Origin: Amphiscolops sp. MND2022
Lineage: Eukaryota
DNA: 64,000 nucleotides
Reading direction: 5' to 3'
Assembly: GCA_964187785.1 (NCBI GenBank)
Contig: OZ076409.1
Span: forward strand, 33,482,001 to 33,546,000
Below are positions 18,536 through 64,000 of the stretch, in pieces. Below the pieces are notes generated by a model. The model was not told the DNA's origin. It did not search any database and saw only the letters and a program-made list of their open reading frames with translations. The stretch's first letter is position 1, and every line of letters begins with the position of its first letter. The position numbers and the translations under genes are program-made.

Positions 18536-20146
18536 TCTTGGGTAGTTCAGATTGCTGACTGCGCCATGTTCTATTTCTTGGTTCGATAAGAAAACAATGT
18601 GGATTTTGTTAAAAGTATCTTTAAACGCAAAAGCAAAATCAAAGCGATCTTCTTTCTATCCTGATTGGTAACACAAATGATATATCTTTAGTACGAAAGA
18701 TTTAGCACTATGTTTACAAATATGTATAAACATAAATCTCATTTGGTCTGTAAAATTCTAAAGAAACATCTGAGTTTGATTGACGTTGTTACCAAGAGAT
18801 CGGTTCGGTATTATACCGTATAACACTGTTAGTACTGCAAAATCAGAGAGACGAAGGCATCATGATCATTCTACATCCGTCTTTGTCAAGGCTATGTCCG
18901 TCTTTGCATGATCATGGCCCATGAATAGATTCTCTTTAAAAAGATTTCAAATATTAATGAAAACTATTTATAATAGAGTATTGGACGCCAAAAACACTAA
19001 AACAAAAAAACTTTGGTCAAAGTATTTCACCTGACGTATTATTGGGTTCAACAATAATTACAATGTCATTACAAATATCGGCTTCCTTCCGCTTTTACTA
19101 ATTCTGCCGAAGGAATAATTCTTTCTCTCGGGTGATTTTGTTCTATTTGTTGGTTTCATTTTTTCGCGACAAGTAAATGCGGAAAAAACAGGCGTGATCC
19201 ATGTTAAATTCACGTTTTATCTGACCAAAACCACCGTCTAATTAACTTTAAAAGCGTTAAGTGAAAGTCTAACAAAATTGTCATTTTCTAAGGTCGTACA
19301 TAATTATAAATAGCTTAAGAGCTAACTATACAACAAACAACTTGCATTTCTAGAATGAATTTTTTACCAAATGTCAATGAAAACGTCATATAACACTGAT
19401 ATCAGATCCGAGACTTGAAAAGCAAACCGAAGCAAGCCGCTTGAGGCTCAAGAAAGTCTTGTACGCTCAAGGACAATTATCGAGAAACTTTCTTACAGTA
19501 CCGAAAATACTCGAAAGGGGCCTTTTGAGACTCGAAAAATGCTTTACCTTAATTGGAAACATTTAAAAAAAACGAAAAAACAAAACGTGTGGAAAAGTTG
19601 GAAAATTTTATGAATGTGGTCAGCTTAAAAACGTAAATGAATCGAGGTTCTTGGATAACTAGAAAAACTTGACAACAATTAAATCACACTTAACATTTCA
19701 AAAACTGGCAGGTTTGTCAATCAATGAGCCAGGTTCTACTGTTTTAAAATTACATCCAGGACAAGGATAATACTTTAAGTCTTCGGCTATATGTCGTTGA
19801 ATACTGAAGCTATGGAATTTTGAAAATACCCTGAATGAGCTTGGTCGATATTCATCGAAGCCAGCATCTTCATGTTCTCTTCACAACTTGGGGGGTGCTG
19901 TCGCGCATACCAAAGAGTTGAATGTTTCCTCACCATCGTGGTCAGATGGTGGTTTGTTTTGTTTGTTTTGAAGAAATTCCCGACTCTTACAGTGGCTAGT
20001 TTTTTTCGTCAGTTCAACGCGATCGGTCCACTTTCTTGTTCATTTGTTCAACATCAGCAACTTCAACTGCGGACCTCCAAAACATACTCGAACCGCCAGA
20101 ACGTCGTCCAAAACAAAACATCGACCTCCAGAACCTCGATAACATA

Positions 20147-20498
20147 GGATCCCCCCTTTGGTGTTTTTCACTCGGATTTTTTCGGCATTATGCTACTTTT
20201 TTGAAGCTTTTTGGATTCCACCAAAGGGTCTCCCCTACAATTTTTTAAATATTTTGCAACACAATGGATGTCAAAAAATCCCAAAAGGTCCCCCCTTTTA
20301 CAATTTTCGGCGCTGTGACACTGTTCAAAAATCTCAATTTTAGAATTTTTTTGAATTTTTTTAATGTTTCCAAAGATCCCCTCTTCATTTTTTTTTGAAA
20401 TTTTGCAATCAAATGGAGTTTCACAAAGTCCAAAGGGTCCCCCTTTTACAATTTTGAGCCTCAGATATACCGCCTACTTTGGCCGTTCCCGGCTTGTT
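20147..20498 (+). mobile_element. Dispersed non-autonomous repeat, Helentron/DINE-1-like, family A
   Basis: aaagggtcccccttttacaat blocks; end gagcct.agatata.cgcc.actttggccgttcccggcttgtt is shared with copies at 33084, 52380 and (inverted) 44211. Confidence 0.6.
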
Positions 20499-21540
20499 TA
20501 ATGTTAAATCTACATGCTGAGTAGTTTGTTCTTGTCTGGCCGAATGCGATTGAATTCTTGAAAAAAATTGAAAGCTTTTCTTCCAGTTGAATAAAAATTT
20601 AGATATAAATATATTTGGAGGTAATCAGAGCAAATTAAAGAAAAATTGTGTCATAAACTAACTCAGTAGTTTTTCGAAATAGACCCTGGGTGTGGAGATA
20701 CATCATTAATTTTTTTTCAGGTAACTTGGAGTCTGAATTTAAAACAGGGCCCAATTTAGAAAAAATGTAGATCTCTGTTAGACTACTTCTTTTGACTGAA
20801 AAACTGCTAGACCAAAAAAGACGTCAGCCTTTGATTTTTTAAAAGTCTATGGTGACAAGGCTTTGACAAAGAGCTGACGCAAATTACAGAAAAAAATTTG
20901 TTCAGTTTCAAGTCGTCAATGCTTTGGAAAATTATCAAAGACTTGGAAATTCAATAAGGTTCGTCTTTGACAACATCCTTTACACTTAATTCTTTCTCCT
21001 ACATTAGATCCATCTAATCTAAAAATTCTGGGTCTTTGAAGCAGCTTTTTCAAGACACTAATCTCTAATAAAAATTAGCTGCGCTTTGTTAAATTAGGTA
21101 TCCAGTTGCATTTATGTTTGACTGCTGCACTAAAATGAATGCTTCAAACACAACTGACATCAATGTACATCTTTAAGAAGTTAATCTTAACACGATTTCA
21201 GATATGCAATTGGACTTCCTCGCAGTGTTTCTGTATTTCATGGAAATTAGTTTCGAAGAAAAAACTAAAGTGGAATTTTTAGTATATTTGAAATTTTACA
21301 GAGGAAGCTGCATGCGAAATGAATCTTTCAGGCAATCAGTACGACACTTATCACGAACCATGTGTTCAACACCTCCCCCCCCCTCCCTCTTGAATAGAAA
21401 TTTTAACTGATAAGGTATCCCAGTGTAAAAACTATTGCAACTTTTGATAAGAATCTTGGATATTCCTGGATTTCTGGGTAAGAATCTTGCCAAGCTTCTT
21501 ACAAAGAAATCCACGAATTTGTAAGAACTTGCAAGATTGT

Positions 21541-53649: not shown

Positions 53650-55088
53650 TTTCATCAAGTTGCTTGAAAGATTCATCAAAACTTTGGCAGCAACTTTTAG
53701 CCTTGAAGTTTTACAGGTTTTAATAAGCAGAAGCTATAATTTTAAAAGCAACTAAGTTGCTGTCACTTTTACCGCTAATTTAATGCACAATAACACCAGT
53801 CGCATAATAAACTGCAAATTAGCATCATTTTGGCGTGCTATTTGAGAAGCGAAGATCAAATCAGATGAGTAGTTGAGAAAAAGTGTTAATACCAAGTGAT
53901 GGCCCAATGAAGTGGTATTTGTTTTTAATTTTAATTGCAGTAGTAGAAAATGCAGTGTAATTCTACATGATTTACCATCCGACGTTCACTGAAGTTTCTA
54001 GGTTTTATAAAAAATTACGCTGCATGCAGGCGTGCAGCATGTGAAACATTCCTGCAGTTTCAACTAAGGCTTGTACTTTCCATGAAATATCCAGCATTAC
54101 TATACAAAACAGACTAATAAAACCTCCGTTCAATTCTCGCGAGAATTTGTTTCACGTAAATTTTTTGAAAAATCAAAAGTTGATGCTTCTTTCGGCATGA
54201 AAATGATAATTGTACGGGAAAAACCGTCAATGCTCCATTTTGTGGGGTCGTTCAGATGAGTGAGAAAAAAAACGAAATGCTCAGTTCCATTTCACACTGG
54301 AAAGAAATCTTGTATGTAAAGAAACCAATAAATGTTTTAAATTTTTACTGTCAATCACACCAAAGTTTCTCATATTGCGTAACCACAGCTTCAGCTACCG
54401 ATATTTCTGACGTTGAGACAAGGTGTAGACATACTCTCCACTATTTTCGTTTTCAGTTTTGACGTGTGGATCCAATTTTCATCCAAAAACGAATTTGCAG
54501 TTTTATTGATTGAGAAGGTGAAATGACATATTCGGAGCTGCTCTGAAACACCTTTTTCTAAAAGTTTATATTTTTGAGACATTGAAAAGTTGTCTGTTTA
54601 GTCTTTAAAGTGTCATTTAGTGGCCTTTCACTAACACAATTCACATCTGAGTGATCCAAAAAAAAACGAGACGAGCAAGAATAGGAAGTGAAAGTGAGAG
54701 ATTTGCAGTAGTATTACAGTAATGTTTTTCGTATTTAATAACTTCAACGAACATTTTTCAGCGAAGCAAAGCGAACGAAGCATATTGCCTTTCGGTTTGC
54801 AGATGCAAATTTCACTTTTCTGTTACTAAAGTGTGAGATTGGCCAACTTTTTCAACTTTGCAAACCAACCCTAATTTTCCGTCCTTTATGACGGGTACGC
54901 GTTTTCGAAAAATATCGACACGACTCTGAACTGTCCAATTAAACCGTCGAATTAAACCGTCCAATCGACCGTCCAATTAAACAAAGTTTTGTCGACGGAT
55001 ATTCCAGTTAGTCTGTTTACCTTAGACAACTTGACAGATCAAATGTGAACACCAGTTTCTTATCAGTTGGCTACTATTATACTCGTAA

Positions 55089-55260
55089 CCCGAACTGACA
55101 AAATTTTGAATTCCAGGACTGCCAAGAATTCCCAAGGACTGGTAAGGACTTGTCAAACTCTGGACCAGTCCTTACCAGTGCCACTTTTAACCTTACAAGT
55201 CCTGGACCAGTCCTTACCAGTCCTGGGGAATCCAGGAGATACGCTGCCAAGGACTGGAAC
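55089..55260. repeat. CCC-initiated terminus with ggactgg/ccagtcc subterminal repeats (candidate EnSpm end)
   Basis: cccgaactgacaaaattttg followed by direct and inverted aggactgg/ccagtcct motifs. Confidence 0.5.
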
Positions 55261-55399
55261 ACGGAAAAATCCAAAACCGATTCAGGGCTTATAATGGCCG
55301 AATATGTGCCATATTTAGTTGAAAAAAGTGTAATTGGGTGCTGAAATAAGGTTTTTTCAGTATGTTGCCTTACAAAAATCGTGAAAAATAGTCTCTCGT

Positions 55400-56740
55400 C
55401 AAATAATCATAAAACTACCTCGAAAACATTAGTTTTTAAAGTCTTGGCTGGCCAACTGAAAAACAGTCCACACTGTGACAGGGCTACCAACGAACAGGTG
55501 CATAAAAAGCCCCATTCACAAAAACACATCAAATAAATGAGCACAAAAACCATGTTGGATGTCTCTCGAAGTCCATCAAAAAAAAACATATCAGGGCCTA
55601 ATATTCAGATCAGGACCTCAAAAACTGCCGTTTTTAAAGTCTTGGCTGGTCAACTGAGAAACAACCGACACTGGCAGGGCCACCAACGAGCACGTGCAAA
55701 AAAACGCCCCATTCGCAATAATACATCAAATAAATGAGCACAAAAACCATGTTGGATGTCTCTCGAAGTCCATCAAAAAAGCAGATCAGGACCTCGAAAA
55801 TATCCGTTTTTATAGTCTTGGCTGGCCAACTGAGAAACAGTCGACACTGGCAGGGCTACCAACGAGCAGGTGCATAAAAAGCCCCATTCACAATAATACG
55901 TGAAATGAATGAGCACAAAAACCATGTTGGATGTCTCTCGAAGTCCATCAAAAAAGCAGATCAGGACCTCAAAAATATCCGTTTTTATAGTCTTGGCTGG
56001 CCAACTGAGAAACAGTCGACACTGGCAGGGCTACCAACGAGCAGGTGCATAAAAAGCCCCATTCACAATAACACATCAAATAAATGAGCACAAAAACCAT
56101 GTTGGATGTCTCTCGAAGTCAATCAAAAAAGCAGATCAGGACCTCGAAAATATCCGTTTTTATAGTCTTGGCTGTCCAACTGAGAAACAGTCGACACTGG
56201 CAGGGCTACCAACGAGCAGGTGCATAAAAAGCCCCATTCACAATAATACGTGAAATGAATGAGCACAAAAACCATGTTGGATGTCTCTCGAAGTCCATCA
56301 AAAAAGCAGATCAGGACCTCGAAAAGATCCGTTTTTATAGTCTTGGCTAGCCAACTGAAAAACAGTCGACACTGGAGAGCTACCAACAAGCAGGTGCAAA
56401 AAAAGCCCCATTCACAAAACATGAAATGAATTAGGTCTCTCAAAGTCCTCAAAGTCCACTCAAAAGCAGATCAGGACCTCGAATATATCCGTTTTTATAA
56501 ACTCAGCTGGCCAACTGAAAAACAGTCGACACTCCTCGCGAGGCTACCAACGAGCAGGTGAATAAAAACCCCATTCACAATAATACATGAAATGAATGAG
56601 CACAAAAACCATGTTGAATGTCTCTGAGTTCATCAAAGAAACAAATCAGGTCCTCATATTCCGACCAGGTCATTGAAAATGTGTTTTTATAGTCTTGTTG
56701 GCCAACTGAGAAACAGCCGACACTGGCAAGTCTACAAACA
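55400..56740. repeat. 175-bp tandem array, ~7.5 units
   Basis: gagcacaaaaaccatgttg occurs at 55539, 55736, 55911, 56086, 56261 and 56598. Confidence 0.97.
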
Positions 56741-57099
56741 AAGAGTTACACTACTATACTCAGTCGCAAAAAATATCATCGAAATGTTGACTTAAAAACA
56801 TCTCTAGTGCGAGGATGTAAAAACAAGATACAAGGCAATTTGAATTCAATATTTTGCTTGAAATCCAGTAAAACTAGACAATGAGAAAAAGTAAATAGTT
56901 TATTCATCGAGGATGATACTCACAAAAATGAGAAGCAACTGAAAACTCATTTTCTTGAGAATGTTCTTTTGAAAAGAAGACTTCAGATGAAAAACTAAGG
57001 GCATCCCGAAGAAAAAAAAGACAGCTGGTTGCACGGATCATTTTTCAGGTATGATCTATGAAATGAGGAATTGGCATCGCCCGCATACGTTTCTCGGTT

Positions 57100-59310
57100 T
57101 CAAGGAAGGAAAAACACTTTCCGGAAAGAATCCACTGGCACAAGATCTTCTTCAAAAGTCGTCTCGAGTTCCAGATACCACTGTCTCTTACTGAATGCGG
57201 GTAGCTCCATTGACTCTTTAACTTTGAAAAACTTTCTTATCGCGGCGCAAGTAGCATTGTCCGGGCAATCAAATGGTAGAAACAGAAAATGAAGTATCTG
57301 GCCAATTCTATTTTCATCTCTGTACTTCACGAGAACATAACTATTCGGAGCTTTCAAGTTCCGAAGATAACAGGCTGAATCCAGGTAAACGCCATTGACC
57401 TGAATTCTGGAAAGTATTGCACAGCCTTTTTATAAAGACCTGGAGCGTTGAACAGCTGGGGTTTCCAAAACGTCCTTTTCAGCTACTTGTTCGTCAGCTT
57501 TTCTTGGAACTTCAAGCCAGGAAGCAATTAGGCCAGTAGCAGGATGATGAGGCAATTCCGAATAAATCAAGTTCCTCCATTCAACGTATCGTCGACATAT
57601 TGTGGTGCAATAGGAATGTGTTCCACTACTAAGCTTCCCCAGTAGGCGATTGGCTGATTCGAAGCACATTGCCGAGAAAGTGAAAAGCGGGCCAAAGTTC
57701 CGTACCTGAACAAAAAAACTCTAGGATTTCTTGGTAATTAGGAAACAAAAACTATGTCCTCACATTTTTGAAAACAACAAATGAAACCGTAAACTTACCT
57801 GATGAGATAGGTGTTTCAGCAAATGAGCATTAAGAGTTTCCAGTTTTTCATTACAATAAAGGTCTGCATATTGCTCGCAGAACAGTTGGAGCATTTGCTC
57901 AGCTTCAGCGACTGCTTGTGGTTGATCGCTTTCAAGAAGAGTTCGTTTACCAAAGACCAAGAACAGGTAATGTTCATAAAGCTCGCGGTCCAACTTGTCT
58001 TTAAGAAGCACAACAGCCACAAAAAAGATAATTGTAAAACTCGTTTGCCTTGAAATAGCCGATCTCATCGACACCTCGAATTCTTCGTCCATGAGCTGAC
58101 AATTCCTTTGGAGCCCAAGTTGCACGAGCCTCGTTGATGAAACTGCAGCGATCGAAAGCAGTCAGAGTTTTCAATTGCTGTTTGAGTAAATCGTGATAAA
58201 CACCAAGTAAAACGCAGTGCATATAGTCAATTCCGCACGCGAGAGGCAAACCATCGACCAATGCAGTGAATGAACATCTGCCTTTGACACCACACACGTT
58301 TTGAGCGCCGCCAGTCAATTTTTCAGTCTCGGCTATTGTCACCAACCGATCAGTGAGTTCAGAATCGCGAATCTCAAACTCTAAATCATGTTGATACATA
58401 TTCAGAATATGCGGACGAGCTATTGAATCAGCGACTATCCATAAAACACGAAATTGCACTCTTTTCGATCCATCTGAAGACATAATTTCAACAAGGCTGG
58501 TCAAGTTTTTTTCAATTCAGGCACAATTTTGGGAGGCAATTCACACAATGACAGCCATATTGGCCAGAGTTCACTTTTAGAGGACGACGCCACAATGCTA
58601 ACGCCGTCAGTTGACAAACAAAGATGCAGTGTAATAGTCTCAAGTGAGAAATTGGAGCACACTTTATCGAGTGGAATATCAGGAACGTGACAGCTATTAC
58701 GTCGTTCAGCATATTTGACCAGATTACACCAATTCTGCTCTACCACATGCTTCAGAAATTCGGACAACGATAATGAACAAAAGGAACCGGTATTCAAGCT
58801 GATGACAGTGGAAAAATCATGGAACCTTTTTTTCATTCGATACACAGGTATTTTGGCGCTTTGGGGTAGGCTCAATTTGATCATTTTTAATAACTCAATA
58901 GTTGCCGAGTCATCCGAATGAAAGTTCAAACTGAAGCTTCTAAGCATTGTGTCGAACGTGTTATAATCGAAAGAAGCTCCAGCGTACATAGGCTCACTCT
59001 GGCATTGCAAGGTCTCAAACGGTTGACAGATTCCGTGTCCTTGTTGGTGAACCGACGAAATTTCGTCAGTGAAATGAGGACTGGGTGCGGGTGACGTCTC
59101 CTGGAAAGGAGATTGCAGAAATTGCTTTTCATTATCGACACTTTCATCAGTTGAGGAATCGACCCGTAATGACGCATCTTCTTCGCATGTCAGAGACGAA
59201 GACTGCGAAATTGAACTTTCGCCATCAAAACTTGATTCCTTCGCGATTTTTGCAGGAGTGGGGATACTGGACAGAAAATTATGAACTTTCACTGAGAAGC
59301 ACTTCCTCAC
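57100..59310 (-). pseudogene. Animal EnSpm/CACTA-like transposase with one intron (57706-57798)
   Basis: LCLSTDGV..WPIWLSLCELPP; IVADSIARP; GVKG; IDYMHCVLLGV; RRIRG..FKANEF; NAHLLKHLSHQ|VRNFGPLFTFSAMCFESAN joined across a gtaagt...ttcag phase-0 intron. Frameshifts at ~58505 and ~58025. Confidence 0.92.
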
Positions 59311-59453
59311 AAGTCTGCCTCTTTCGGTGGGAAATTTCGAACAAGTTTCCTCGGAAAACTCTTCGAGCGGTTGATTTGAAGAGAAAAACTCAGCATTAGA
59401 GACATTGGTGCAACCCTCGTGCTCTTCTTCCTCTGCAAGTAATGTTTTGGTTT

Positions 59454-60017
59454 GACAGGTTTCGCACTTACACTGGTTACATTCAAAGAAATCGGGGTAG
59501 TACTACACAACTAACTCCTCACCGGAGAAAACTTTTCGTTTTGTTCGCAGTCGCACCACCTTTGCATCGCTCGTGAAGTCGTACTCACAGTTTGGATTGC
59601 AATCGGAATTTACAAAACGTAGTGGGCCTAACATCAGCAGTTCTTTTCCAGTTTTTTTTCAGAATACAAGACAGAAAGGTCAGTTACACCGGAAGGTATT
59701 TCACAAGTAAAACCGTAAGGATGTTTTCGAAGTAGGGTACCCTTCAAAAGTATATTCGAACCCTTGTAATACAATCCATACCCGTTGAACGAATCATGGC
59801 GGAATTCAAAATCCCCTCCACAATTGAGATAGGCAGCCAGTAGTGTCTCATGGACGTTCTTCAGTATAGTATCACGGATGAGGGAGTCACGGAAGTATGG
59901 GGCACTCTTCAAACGAACAGCTGTTCCGTGTTCTCGACCACCGTATTGAACAAGCTGTTTTACAATTTGACCGTCACATTGAGCTAACATTTTCCAATCG
60001 CAATTTCTGGGAAGCAT
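59454..60017 (-). pseudogene. Suv4-20/KMT5-like SET and post-SET domain, in frame with the transposase
   Basis: Manual translation: ...GFTCEIPSGVTDLSVLYSEK/TGKELLMLGPLRFVNSDCNPNCEYDFTSDAKVVRLRTKRKVFSGEELVV*YYPDFFECNQCKCETC. Frameshift in the A8 run (59652-59659); TAG at 59503-59505. Confidence 0.9.
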
Positions 60018-60942
60018 TATATCTGAAAGAAAGACATGGGCGTAACTTTCACTTGATTGGAAAACTGGAACTCACAAAATCCTCAGTTTTCAGAATTTGA
60101 GAAAAAACAGATACGCAAAAACACAAGTAACATCAAGTAAAATAAATTAACATCGAAAAACAAGTAGCAGCACCAAACGAGAAAAAGGCTGTCAAGTCGC
60201 GAAACAACCTCAGTGAGTTTCCAAGGTGAACATTCTTGAACCTCCTTTTTGATCCGAATCATTGTCCAGATTCCTTCTGTTTGATGAGTTGAAGTTGTTT
60301 CACCTACAGAAGAAGAAAAAGTTTGTATCTTGTATTCCAAAAAAATTTCAAAAATAGTTACCACACGTTGAAGAGCTTTTTTTTAATTTTGAGGAAGCGT
60401 TTTCTTCTTTCCGCGCAAACTTGTCAACAATATGAGCTAAATCCAGCAGTGAATCCGCCAATGTAGACAGTTTGTTGACGAGTGTCTTCAAATACTCAGG
60501 AGACAGAGCAACTTGCTGGAACAAAAAACCTTGTTAACTGAACTACATTTTTTTTCAGAAGAAAACATGCGCCTTCATACTTTTTTTGTCACAACCACGC
60601 TCATTTTGGATATGTCTTCAAAGGTCAGAAGTTTTCTCCGGAAATTTTTAGAAATCGTTTTCACCTGAAAAATCGAAAAGTAAATTCTGGAAAAGAAGTA
60701 GAGTTCCGGAAGGCCAAATGACTAACATGAACGCTTGTCGACGCTTTTCCCGGCGAACAGCGAACCAAGTTCTTGCCGATGTTCTCCTTTTAAAAATCAT
60801 TTAATTGCACTAGCTATCAGCAATGGATGATTATTAGGCAGAATGAATGTAGTTACCGTGACAACAAGGCCTCTATCATCATGCAAAACATCGACGACAC
60901 AATTGTCATGAAGGAAGTTCGACTGACATCGGCGAACATACG

Positions 60943-61235
60943 AGTAGTATGGGGAATCCCGATTCGGGCCACCAAAACCCCAAAAGTTAAAAGTCCTCAA
61001 AACCATTGATTTTATGGACTTTTTAGAAAACAAATCATCAAAAAATAGTGTTTTTACCATGAAGCAAAATTCACTAACGTTGACATTACACCATAGAGGC
61101 TAGTGAATTTTGCTTCATGGTAAAAACATTATTTTTTGATGATTTGTTTTCTAAAAAAGTCCTCAAAATCAATGGTTTTGAGGACTTTTAATTTTTGGGG
61201 TTTTGGTGGCCCGAATCGGGATTTCCCATACTACT
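60943..61235. mobile_element. TIR-only mini-Polinton (293 bp)
   Basis: AGTAGT...ACTACT ends; 6-bp TSD CATACG (60937-60942 and 61236-61241); ~135-bp inverted arms matching the Polinton end at 61270. Confidence 0.88.
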
Positions 61236-61424
61236 CATACGCTTCATTACCTCTTGACTTCACTTCAGTAGTAGTATGGGGAATCCCGATTCGGGCCACC
61301 AAAACCCCAAAAATTAAAAGTCCTCAAAACCATTGATTTTAAGGACTTTTTAGAAATCAAATCATCAAAAAATTGTGTTTTTACCAAATTCCATAGCTTC
61401 TATGGTGTAATGTCAACGTTGCAA

Positions 61425-61581
61425 CCAGCGTTCAATGTGTAATAATAACATGTTGCTGTACAGCCAACGTTAATGTACAGCCAACGTTAATGTACAACCA
61501 GCGTTAATGTACAACCAGCGTTAATGTACAACCAACGTTAATGTACAACCAACGTTAATGTACACAACCAACGTTAATGTA
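61425..61581. repeat. 17-bp tandem repeat near the Polinton end
   Basis: About 7 copies of aacgttaatgtacaacc plus degenerate ones. Confidence 0.9.
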
Positions 61582-61620
61582 CCGGCGCATACCTTATTCT
61601 TATATAACTACAACTAACAT

Positions 61621-61975: not shown

Positions 61976-62386
61976 ATGAATTATCTCTCTTTCGAAGACT
62001 TTGTTGAAAAACATGGATTAAAAAACGAAGCAACTTCCAATGTAAAAATAAAAGAAATCTGAAAACTCATGGACATAACCGAGTGTGGAATATACATGAG
62101 AGATGATAAGTTTAACACTACCAGTGGTATAGTTAACTTACATCCAACTAAAGGAACACATTGGGTTATGTATAAAAACCAAAACTATTTTGATTCATAT
62201 GGATGCCCACCCCCAACTAATATACTTAATCATAATAAAAATGGTATTTATTCAGAATATCAAATTCAGACAAACGACAGTTATTGCGAGGCGTATTGTT
62301 TATACACACTGTATCTCACAAATAAAATTGGGTTCAAAAATGCAGTACTAAATTTATACTATCAAACTTTCAAACTTAATAAATGA
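61976..62386 (+). pseudogene. Adenain-like (Polinton) cysteine protease with one in-frame TGA at 62060
   Basis: MNYLSFEDF...KEI*KLMDITECG...IVNL..GTHWV..YFDSYG..QIQ..SYC; the His/Asp/Gln/Cys catalytic order is retained. Confidence 0.88.
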
Positions 62387-62597
62387 AGAAAATTAATAAT
62401 TATTCAACTCAATAAAAAATTATCTCGCGCAGCTTCGCGCACAGCTCCACAGAACAGCTTCACAATCAAAATCAAAATCATGGAAAAAATACAACAAATT
62501 TGCATAAGAAACCATTATCAAAAGATAGGCAAGAATTTATAAATAACATTTCCCCTAGTGGATTCAAACAAATTCAAGCATGATTTTTTCCTAATAA

Positions 62598-63638
62598 ATG
62601 GATCTATCAAGCTTTGTAACTTATGATAAAAAAGAATATCTTTTTTCAAGTATTGCAAAATCTAATCAAAAAATTGTTGAAAATACTCATTCTAAACCAC
62701 AAGAAACTCTAGAATTTAAAATGACTAAACAAAAAGAATCTTTCTCATTTGATGTTTCATTACTACTGCCTGAAAAATGGGTGATGGGAGTAACAAGTTT
62801 AGAAGTATACAACACTGTATATAACATTACTGAAAAGAATAACAAACTTGAAATTCTTCTAACAAAACAACAACTCGAAGAGCATAGAGTTGACACTGAA
62901 TTAGTGCCAAAAATAAAGGATTTGTATGAAACATCTGATGATAAACTTATAGAAAAAACTAATACACTCATAACTAATAGTTATATTAAAAAGAAGAAAA
63001 AACTTACTAGAAAAGACTTTAACCAACTCAAGGAATTAATTGAAGTTTTTAACTATCCTGATCAACAAATGCGTATTCCTGACTTTGAAATTGAACATGA
63101 TTCCTTTGGAATACAGCTAACACCAGGAGCATATGAATTAGTTGATATCAATGCTTCCGTAAAACAAATAATTACTGATACGAAGACAGCGTTGCAGTCA
63201 GCTTTCCCGTATTCTGATTTTAAATTCAACATAATACCCGACACAATATCAATGAAATCAGTTTTAACAACCTCAAATCCTATTCATTTTAACTCCGAAC
63301 TTAACAAAGTCCTGGGATTTATACAACGTGATTACCTATCCGGAACTCACACTTCAGAAAAACCAGTTATGATAACAACCACAGACAAAGTTCATCTGAA
63401 GTGTGATTGTGTAGATGGTTCAATTGTTAATGGTATACGAGAACAAATTTTATTTTCTTTCCATTCAAACGCACCTCCCGGATATAAAACTATAAAGGAA
63501 CCCACAACTGTTTTGTACAAGCTGATAAACAAAACACGACTGGACACCATTCAATTTTTCCTTGAAGACTCTAACCACAACCCAGTTGATTTCAACGGGG
63601 AGACACTCAACTTCACAATTCAAATTATCAAGATTTAA
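62598..63638 (+). CDS. Polinton/adintovirus minor capsid (penton) protein
   Basis: Intact 346 aa ORF; VHLKCDCVDGSIVNG and C-terminal IQFFLEDSNHNPVDFNGETLNFTIQI; sits next to the protease. Confidence 0.82.
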   Translation: MDLSSFVTYDKKEYLFSSIAKSNQKIVENTHSKPQETLEFKMTKQKESFSFDVSLLLPEKWVMGVTSLEVYNTVYNITEKNNKLEILLTKQQLEEHRVDTELVPKIKDLYETSDDKLIEKTNTLITNSYIKKKKKLTRKDFNQLKELIEVFNYPDQQMRIPDFEIEHDSFGIQLTPGAYELVDINASVKQIITDTKTALQSAFPYSDFKFNIIPDTISMKSVLTTSNPIHFNSELNKVLGFIQRDYLSGTHTSEKPVMITTTDKVHLKCDCVDGSIVNGIREQILFSFHSNAPPGYKTIKEPTTVLYKLINKTRLDTIQFFLEDSNHNPVDFNGETLNFTIQIIKI

Positions 63639-63656
63639 TACTTTTAATAATAATAA

Positions 63657-64000
63657 ATGAGTTATAATAAATATATAAATAATTCATTTTGTGTTGGTGA
63701 AAAACATTATTCCCCACCACAAATATTTATGGAGATGCTAGAAACAATAATGTAAAAATGTTACGGGGCACCTGTATGATATGTAGCAGAAATAAAAGTC
63801 TTATTGTATCAGATCGCACAATAAATGGGGAAGGATTGGGCGACTTCTTCAAACATTTGGGTTCTGCAGCCAAAAACGTTGGAAAGAAAATACTCAATAA
63901 TCCAGGCCGTGCATTGGAAATAGCAGCAAATATTGGAACGGCAGCAGCAAGAAAAAATCCAAAACTCATTGCTGCAACTGCCTCCGACGTTATTAAATTT
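63657..64000 (+). pseudogene. Small Zn-ribbon protein with a pVI/pX-like amphipathic segment (frameshift ~63713, truncated by window end)
   Basis: MSYNKYINNSFCVGEKHYS/TTNIYGDARNNNVKMLRGTCMICSRNKSLIVSDRTINGEGLGDFFKHLGSAAKNVGKKILNNPGRALEIAANIG... Confidence 0.65.

Follow-up and report, generated by a model that had tools for sequence, protein, structure and literature searches.

We consider it very probable that a dead copy of a TRC/Mirage-like DNA transposon, carrying an ancestral and selected fusion of a KMT5-like SET module to a DDE transposase that would couple it to nucleosomes, lies on the minus strand at positions 55089-60942 of the stretch of DNA analysed here. This stretch, referred to as the window, comprises 64,000 nt of Amphiscolops sp. 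MND2022 (OZ076409.1:33,482,001-33,546,000) in an assembly of 1.07 Gb. The window copy is an ordinary dead relic, and interest attaches to its family. Its broken SET-linker-transposase gene runs from 60017 to 57100 and would, when intact, have specified one polypeptide from two coding exons: a KMT5-like module, a disordered acidic/Ser-rich linker and a DDE transposase.

The gene starts with an ATG at 60017-60015 (minus strand, as for all features of the element given below), which reads MLPRNCDWKMLAQCDGQ and lies in a stop-to-stop frame at 59634-60071 with the C-terminal end ...DLSVLYSEKKLEKNC. The SET domain is continued by a second frame of 51 amino acids at 59503-59658 (KKTGKELLMLGPLRFVNSDCNPNCEYDF...GEELVV). 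This is followed by a frame of 333 codons at 58501-59502, leading from YYPDFFECNQCKCETC through an acidic/Ser-rich stretch to ...LSTDGVSIV...LPPK, and four further frame pieces continue the gene down to its natural stop at 57102-57100. An earlier, sequence-only reading of this DNA had described the ATG, the A8 run at 59652-59659, a TAG and the open 58501-59502 frame, all of which are present. It missed the lesions downstream, a 93-nt intron, the end of the element at 55089 and the loss of homology at 60942.

The Suv4-20/KMT5-like module (59455..60017), composed of an N-terminal helical domain, a SET domain and a post-SET CxCxxC motif, was identified with Pfam SET, PDB sequence search and Foldseek. 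The 51-aa window piece alone exceeded the cut-off for Pfam SET (PF00856), with 30.6 bits against 22.4 (E 4.9e-7), as did the SET domain of L002, a related locus in the same genome (31.0 bits). When residues 1-213 of the L002 frame (P0031) were searched against PDB sequences, the ten best matches were SUV420H1/H2 (KMT5B/C), with E from 4.4e-11 to 2.1e-10, followed by vSET (6.2e-5) and KMT2D (3.5e-3). L018 and L016, in which the SET domain keeps the NH of the canonical NHxCxPN motif, also matched KMT5B/C first (E 1.2e-12 and 3.6e-18). An AlphaFold2 model of the module, built on a 29-sequence alignment, had a mean pLDDT (predicted local distance difference test) of 87.5 and a pTM (predicted template modelling score) of 0.83. 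The 15 chains that Foldseek ranked highest in the PDB were all SUV420H1/H2, aligned over 217-238 columns with a query template modelling (TM) score of 0.54-0.75. The next entries were a SUV420H1 nucleosome complex (174 columns, TM 0.56) and vSET (110 columns, TM 0.39), and other SET families had a query TM of about 0.4. An alignment of 217-238 columns thus also takes in the helical N-domain, which in Suv4-20 enzymes lies ahead of the SET core. In a protein atlas, the SET part reached generic, mostly bacterial SET clusters only.

Alignment of the KMT5 and element sequences gave the pattern D(F/L)S(I/V)(M/L)YS, LGP, F(I/V)N(H/S)DC.PNC, G(D/E)E, YG..FF and C.C.TC, in which the first option is that of KMT5 and the second that of the element. 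Residues S133 (LSV), N154, C157, P159, N160, E185, Y190, F195, C200 and C202 were at least 90% conserved or invariant in the 29 sequences. Residue mapping placed the Ser of LSV at 59675-59673 and the conserved SET Tyr at 59502-59500 in the window, which also keeps the post-SET CxCxxC motif (CKCETC). The SET part is Suv4-20/KMT5-like by sequence and predicted fold. The sequence-only reading had assigned it to this type, and the first ranks of SUV420H1/H2 in both the PDB sequence search and Foldseek agree with that assignment; the outcome against which it had warned, a SET part that hits no KMT5 or SET profile, did not occur. Its statement that the family Ser, the invariant Tyr and the Zn-binding Cys are retained matches both the residue mapping and the 29-sequence alignment.

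The canonical NHxCxPN motif is altered in the window, where NSDCNPN was read at 59610-59590, with the NS at 59610-59605. NSDC was fixed through the crown clade to which the window belongs, with Ser in place of His, and the canonical NH was kept in L018, L024, P0052, P0058, P0075 and P0081. Because Ser is found throughout the crown clade and His in these six others, NS is a derived, fixed trait of the family and not decay of this copy; the change from NH to NS had been seen in the sequence-only reading and extends to the whole clade. Judging from these motifs, the basal members of the NH type probably also transfer methyl groups. Catalysis is doubtful in the NS clade, where the module more likely serves for tethering or targeting; it may be a weakened enzyme or a pure tether. 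The labels "captured" and "writer", which the sequence-only reading applied to the module, likewise name a possible origin and a possible activity.

The transposase follows the linker. The acidic/Ser-rich linker and the N-terminal transposase region (58651..59454) are poorly conserved, and the part of the DDE core that lies in exon 1 occupies 57799..58650. In a set of 22 full-length proteins, 21 or more agreed at D507 (sTDGvs), D590, G608, C609, C612, D683 and H686 (DYMH), N816, H818, H822, F841 and E842. Mapped to the window, the conserved columns place the first catalytic D at 58608-58606, the second at 58429-58427, the His of DYMH at 58219-58217 and the H(3)H pair at 57825-57811. The codon for the catalytic E, mapped to E842 of L023, is at 57660-57658. 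The D, D, C(2)C, H(3)H and E columns are those of a CMC (CACTA/EnSpm-Mirage-Chapaev) DDE transposase; a signature of such conserved columns is given for EnSpm, Mirage, Chapaev and Transib in the accessible part of PMC12730594. A phase-0 spliceosomal intron of 93 nt (57706..57798) separates the exons. Its GT and AG ends are common to the window, L002, L003 and L006, and single-exon relatives have an uninterrupted ...HLADQVRRFGPL... at this position. Exon 2 (57100..57705; open reading frames (ORFs) 57430-57720 and 57100-57429) encodes the C-terminal part of the transposase.

In Pfam, the window piece alone was below threshold for Transposase_21 (14.3 bits, E 0.023) and DUF1258 (18.2 bits, E 0.0018), and L002 was above the cut-off for both (31.7 bits against 28.6, and 38.2 against 33.1). 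DUF1258 was the best transposase match in 9 of the 11 SET-transposase proteins scanned and was below the cut-off in P0003. In what could be seen of Majorek et al. (2014, PMC3985635), DUF1258 is equated with the Mirage group and Transposase_21 with CACTA/En-Spm. In the protein atlas, the full-length protein reached SET-less Transposase_21/DUF1258 clusters only, at 0.77. Fifteen SET-less relatives contained Transposase_21, DUF1258 and a weak DUF4218 only, and Pfam found no alternative N-terminal domain in them.

The fusion recurs throughout the genome. A search of the same assembly with the 333-aa linker/transposase piece gave at least 73 matches. L002, which is 82% identical, contained SET, DUF1258 and Transposase_21 in a single open frame of 747 aa, and L008 and L010 (32% identical) had SET and transposase in one frame of 594 aa. 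Three other families were represented by L015, L023 and L024, with all three domains in uninterrupted frames of 1099, 1043 and 1016 aa, respectively; L018 had the same domain layout split across two frames. The transposase matches were merged to 66 loci and the SET matches (at least 150) to 138 loci, both lists being lower bounds. Among the matches listed, 59 of the 66 transposase loci had a SET match no more than 3 kb upstream on the same strand, and at least one of the 7 SET-less transposase loci was an artefact of merging a tandem pair. For 79 of the 138 SET loci there was no listed transposase match, a count that has to be read with the poor conservation of the region used as the transposase query.

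Proteins of the same architecture were also found outside this assembly. A protein database search returned 29 proteins, 17 of which paired SET with DUF1258 or Transposase_21 and reached 1116 aa. All 17 were unnamed, and the only named match among the 29 was a fungal SET protein (E 6e-5). A cluster look-up with eight of the fusion proteins yielded neither names nor accessions. An exhaustive HMMER search with L023 reached 7595 representatives at a threshold of E ≤ 1e-3, of which 200 had E ≤ 1e-30; among the 175 proteins collected by then, 68 covered the transposase core, and 20 of these also carried SET. The in-frame fusion proposed in the sequence-only reading is thus confirmed by open single frames in L002, L015, L023 and L024 and by the database proteins. 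The linkage of SET and transposase, with terminal inverted repeats (TIRs) and target-site duplications (TSDs) in the complete copies, is not unique to this locus.

The Suv4-20-like module (N-domain and SET, mostly with NH) was also seen in many repeated intronless ORFs of 283-1153 aa, in which no transposase was recognisable in the same frame. Examples are L016 (C11:60848000-60857000), L017/L020, L019/L035-L037, L021, L022, L025 and L026. Several lengths recurred exactly; ORFs of 783 aa and of 831 aa, for instance, were each present in 5 places. Searching the genome with the fungal SET protein gave 1275 first-look candidates, and the 37 of these that were scored for a host KMT5 orthologue included only repeated intronless ORFs. 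Beside the SET ORF of L022, on the minus strand at L022:1482-3314, was a 611-aa ORF with a sub-threshold phage-integrase N-terminal SAM-like domain (E 0.021); judged by this similarity, it may be part of a tyrosine-recombinase element with a SET gene.

The ends of the element were defined from complete copies. A perfect 11-bp TIR, CCCGTACTGAC...GTCAGTACGGG, bounds copy A (17.4 kb, on C10), copy B (20.2 kb with a 2-kb duplication of the 5' end, on C9) and copy C (also on C9). Full copies are 17-20 kb long, and two of them have 16.8 kb in common. The outer flanks of the three copies were mutually unrelated, and all three had a target duplication of 2 bp (TG/TG, AT/AT and TG/TG); three bases did not match. 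In the window, the 3' TIR at 55089..55099 reads CCCGAACTGAC on the plus strand, with one mismatch to the family CCCGTACTGAC, and the sequence outside it bears no relation to the flanks of other copies. It is adjoined by a 3' subterminal unique region (55100..55398) that aligns to copies A and B at 83-86% and by a tandem array of ~175-bp units (55399..56745). Tandem Repeats Finder gave a period of 175 with 6.1 copies at 55606-56655, and blastn ladders linked the array to L011-L013; it spans 1.3 kb in the window and ~6 kb in copies A to C. Upstream of the gene, blastn boundaries define a non-coding 5' leader at 60018..60942. Homology of the window copy to all other copies ends at 60942 on the 5' side and at 55089 on the 3' side. 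In copy A the point equivalent to 60942 is at A11665 and the 5' TIR at A4800, so that full copies extend 6.9 kb further 5'. This 6.9-kb part was checked for a second gene and contained no ORF longer than 124 aa and no Pfam match.

A long TIR was considered and rejected: inverted 30-mer and 16-mer copies of the 3' end were not found, and only an 11-mer search located the 5' end. The 3'-terminal 29-mer occurred 248 times in the genome (118 forward, 130 reverse) and 0 times as a reversed control. Compared with six coding copies of the subfamily, this number suggests many non-autonomous derivatives or related families that share the ends. In copy B (C9:39897000-39901000, L029), the ~2-kb tandem duplication took in the 5' TIR together with the flank next to it; at positions 1227 and 3236 of a 30-kb stretch, the TIR was present with identical upstream flanks.

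Elements that are CACTA in the strict sense have CACTA termini and a 3-bp target duplication (Repbase classification). The elements described here end in CCCGTACTGAC...GTCAGTACGGG, and their flanks match over 2 bp only; "CAC..GTG and 3 bp" is the wording in the accessible part of PMC12730594. They have instead the CCC TIR core, the 2-bp TSD, the 3' tandem repeats, Transposase_21 and DUF1258 of the animal TRC/Mirage-like elements. The CCC TIRs, 2-bp TSD, 3' array and Transposase_21 therefore indicate the TRC/Mirage type, which belongs to the CACTA superfamily only broadly. The EnSpm/CACTA label of the sequence-only reading stands in the broad CMC sense and fails in the strict one, on account of the CCC ends and the 2-bp TSD.

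Comparison with L002 (90.8% identity across 2899 aligned bases) showed how far the window copy has decayed. The A8 run at 59652-59659 contains two extra A, and a Lys codon of L002 corresponds to the TAG at 59505-59503. Losses of 3, 6 and 15 bp preserve the frame, and deletions of 72 bp near 58529 and of 1 bp near 58513 were found as well. The C(2)C motif was lost in a 75-bp deletion near 58392, a frameshift in a T-run near 58027 was seen when this run was compared across six copies, and a premature TAA at 57432-57430 replaces a Tyr codon of L002. The copy still has codons for both D residues, for the H(3)H pair and for the E. Private lesions were present in every copy read, which is the pattern expected of neutral decay following insertion. 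A programmed frameshift at the T-run near 58027 was rejected, because L003 and L006 are in frame there and the slips in L002 and the window are different and private. The pseudogene status assigned in the sequence-only reading is borne out by these frameshifts, two stop codons and deletions. Beyond 60942 are palindromic repeats resembling miniature inverted-repeat transposable elements (MITEs) and unrelated ORFs; the missing 6.9-kb 5' part was therefore deleted, or displaced past the end of the window by nested insertions.

The SET module is conserved and, as far as substitutions in these copies indicate, under purifying selection. Between the window and L002 (dS ~0.2), the ratio of non-synonymous to synonymous substitution rates (dN/dS) was 0.27 in the N-terminal piece of SET, 0.13 in its core and 0.42 in the linker together with the post-SET region. 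The differences in SET amounted to 23.5 synonymous in 117 sites and 20.5 non-synonymous in 389 sites (Fisher p = 5e-6). For the transposase core, a quick, unfinished maximum-likelihood search gave a tree, rooted at the midpoint, of 71 rows (68 database proteins plus L015, L023 and L024), with 107 stored proteins excluded for insufficient coverage of the core. All 23 SET-bearing rows were on one side of the root, among 38 rows, and none was among the 33 rows opposite. The SET side also held 14 rows with a short N-terminus and 1 with another N-terminus. This distribution fits, without proving, a single old acquisition of SET by a TRC-like transposase and a later change from NH to NS within the clade.

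Taken together, these observations point to a large autonomous cut-and-paste DNA transposon, of which the window copy would be a 5'-truncated version or one interrupted by nested insertions, and to a fusion that would be an ancestral, selected feature of a deep transposase clade and not a local accident. KMT5 enzymes act on the nucleosomal histone H4 tail. Since they use this tail, and since several SUV420H1-nucleosome complexes are among the PDB matches, we infer that the SET module engages the H4 tail of nucleosomes and so would link the transposase to the chromatin of the donor or target site. Candidate functions of such a mark or tether would be site choice, replication timing, repair bias at the empty donor site and self-limitation.

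Several observations weigh against this interpretation. No fully open copy was among those read of the window's own subfamily; L002 had a private T-run frameshift, and L003 and L006 had stops. That SET and transposase form one protein in this species is predicted from genomic frames; a search of sequencing runs with the L002 frame listed no RNA data set containing it. Mutation of the His in the NHxCxPN motif inactivates SUV39H1, and its replacement by Ser in the window's whole clade puts catalysis there in doubt. Specificity for H4K20 is inferred solely from a likeness to KMT5 at ~20% identity. Comparisons of near-identical copies within a family gave noisy dN/dS values of 0.24-2.47, on 1-18 differences per class, too few to be informative, as is expected of copies that decay once inserted. 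The split between SET and SET-less transposases, taken from a quick tree with a midpoint root, was only moderately supported (84 in the Shimodaira-Hasegawa-like approximate likelihood ratio test, SH-aLRT). On this tree the SET label required 11 changes, against a mean of 19.7 after shuffling and with none of 500 shuffles reaching so low a number; the changes are due to interspersed short-N gene calls that are probably truncated.

Other explanations differ mainly in the role that they give to the SET module. It could be a fully active methyltransferase for H4K20 or another lysine, writing marks on the element's own chromatin or at the break, with tethering secondary. Such activity would suit the KMT5-type fold including the N-domain, the invariant or nearly invariant LSV Ser, motif Asn, YG Tyr and post-SET Cys across the 29 sequences, and the strong constraint on the SET core (dN/dS 0.13). 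The canonical NH in L018, L024, P0052, P0058, P0075 and P0081 would suit it too, but the change from NH to NS is fixed in the window's clade, and we regard full activity as possible at best. A tentative proposal, and one that goes further, is that a deep, undescribed clade of animal cut-and-paste transposases exists in which the transposase itself reads or writes H4K20 methylation on the nucleosomes that it meets, and that the same module has spread to hundreds of other repeated ORFs. If true, such a transposase could, for instance, tell replicated from unreplicated chromatin, influence how the excision gap is repaired or select insertion sites, and the transposons of this genome would own a large private repertoire of chromatin-modifier domains.

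The proteins, or some lineages of them, could also be domesticated host genes resembling SETMAR that are no longer mobile. The persistence of long intact single-exon frames and the many repeated SET-only ORFs without a recognisable transposase count in favour of domestication; the TIRs, 2-bp TSDs, unrelated flanks and private lesions in the window's family, the dozens of dispersed loci and the conserved catalytic DDE residues contradict it, and we consider it improbable. Still less credible, to the point of being very nearly negligible, is that SET and transposase are two adjacent genes, or that SET is a passenger gene fragment, with frames aligned by chance. The window copy is indeed broken exactly between the two parts, by the TAG at 59505-59503, and the evidence for one protein in this species comes from genomic frames. 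However, this TAG replaces a Lys codon of L002, the junction is open in L002, L008, L010, L015, L023, L024 and 20 database proteins with 32-55% mutual identity, and the SET domain is under purifying selection. A mobile KMT5-like SET-transposase fusion coupled to nucleosomes is the interpretation that we prefer.

Several features of the window lie outside the element. Short tandem repeats were found on both sides of it, a 17-bp unit repeated 7.3 times at 61457-61582 and a 13-bp unit repeated 4.2 times at 54929-54982. The palindromic MITE-like repeats (arms ...GGCCCGAATCGGGATTCCCCATACTACT...) at 60943-61340 adjoin the homology breakpoint at 60942 and may be an insertion that interrupts the transposon. 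At 62063-64000, on the plus strand, are ORFs of 107 aa, 346 aa and at least 100 aa, the last of which runs off the window. A Pfam scan of these three ORFs at E ≤ 0.001 matched no family; a Maverick/Polinton identity was tried for this region and received no support from Pfam, and the region is probably another repeat. At 20000-20500, two stretches of 49-58 bp matched the 5' leader of the full copies L011 and L013 with 81-90% identity, and these probably represent a small repeat nested within the L011 and L013 copies.

Transposons are usually viewed as targets of histone methylation, and here a clade of transposases carries a module of the methyltransferase type itself. If the module is active or binds nucleosomes, these elements would be a natural system for studying the coupling of a DDE transposase to one specific state of chromatin, and a natural counterpart of engineered fusions between transposases and chromatin domains. 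Site choice and repair bias are poorly understood for DNA transposons. The natural NH and NS variants provide a ready comparison of catalytic and non-catalytic roles. The range of transposon-borne epigenetic enzymes (TET/JBP, and SET in HarbingerS, MuDR, Helitron and Plavaka) would be extended to animals and to in-frame fusion.

Among known proteins, the SET part most resembles SUV420H1/H2 (KMT5B/C) and Set9. It has in common with them the helical N-domain, the pattern (F/L)SV...LGP...F(I/V)N.DC.PNC...GEE...YG..FF...C.C..C and the post-SET Cys. It differs in its identity of only ~20%, in the change of the NHxC His to Ser in the window's clade and in the transposase that replaces the long C-terminal tail of KMT5. 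A model for the tether reading is provided by the chromodomain of chromoviral (Ty3/gypsy) integrases, a built-in histone-mark module used for targeting. That chromodomain is a C-terminal reader on a retroelement integrase, and its fold is unrelated to SET. In SETMAR, as here, a SET lysine-methyltransferase is N-terminal to a DDE/D transposase in one polypeptide. SETMAR is a single-copy primate host gene that arose when a transposon landed beside a host SET gene; its transposase is from Hsmar1, of the Tc1/mariner group, and its SET is not of the KMT5 type. In contrast, the present fusion is on multi-copy elements with TIRs and TSDs, at dozens of dispersed loci with private lesions.

The sequence-only reading rightly named SETMAR as a precedent for SET on a transposon, but SETMAR is not the sole one. 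According to the accessible part of PMC12730594, SET genes are carried by HarbingerS and MuDR of Phytophthora (Kojima & Jurka 2014, cited there) and have been captured by Helitrons, and fungal transposons, EnSpm and Plavaka among them, carry TET/JBP genes. The Plavaka accessory gene PAG2 of a red alga also carries SET, as stated in the portion available of bioRxiv 10.1101/2025.02.11.637652. These systems resemble the present one in that a lineage of DNA transposons stably carries SET, presumably acting on chromatin. As they are described in these sources, SET is there a separate accessory gene, on other superfamilies and in oomycete or algal hosts, whereas here it is in frame, KMT5-like and in an animal-type genome.

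Full-text searches of the literature, with Repbase Reports and Repbase/Dfam entries outside their reach, turned up neither a SET domain fused to a CMC, TRC or Mirage transposase nor one of the KMT5 type, which accords with the statement in the sequence-only reading that no described Suv4-20-EnSpm fusion was known. In their accessible parts, PMC1636069 and PMC3985635 describe no SET or other chromatin domain on TRC/Mirage transposases; in that of PMC1636069 the word "methyltransferase" is absent, and the three occurrences of "set" as a whole word are the ordinary word. As far as the same text of DeMarco et al. (2006, PMC1636069) goes, TRC elements are present in Schistosoma, Tribolium and Aedes and have CCC TIRs, 2-bp duplications, 3' tandem repeats and Transposase_21. 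The present elements resemble the TRC/Mirage elements so described in the Transposase_21/DUF1258 DDE domain, the CCC TIRs, the 2-bp TSD, the 3' block of tandem repeats and the introns. SmTRC1 is given there as 4.5 kb long with a 560-aa protein, and the elements described here differ in their length of 17-20 kb and in a protein of ~1000-1100 aa with a KMT5-like N-terminus. SET on transposons was already known, and the in-frame fusion of a KMT5-like module to a TRC/Mirage-type transposase, as read from these sequences, would be a new variation on that theme.

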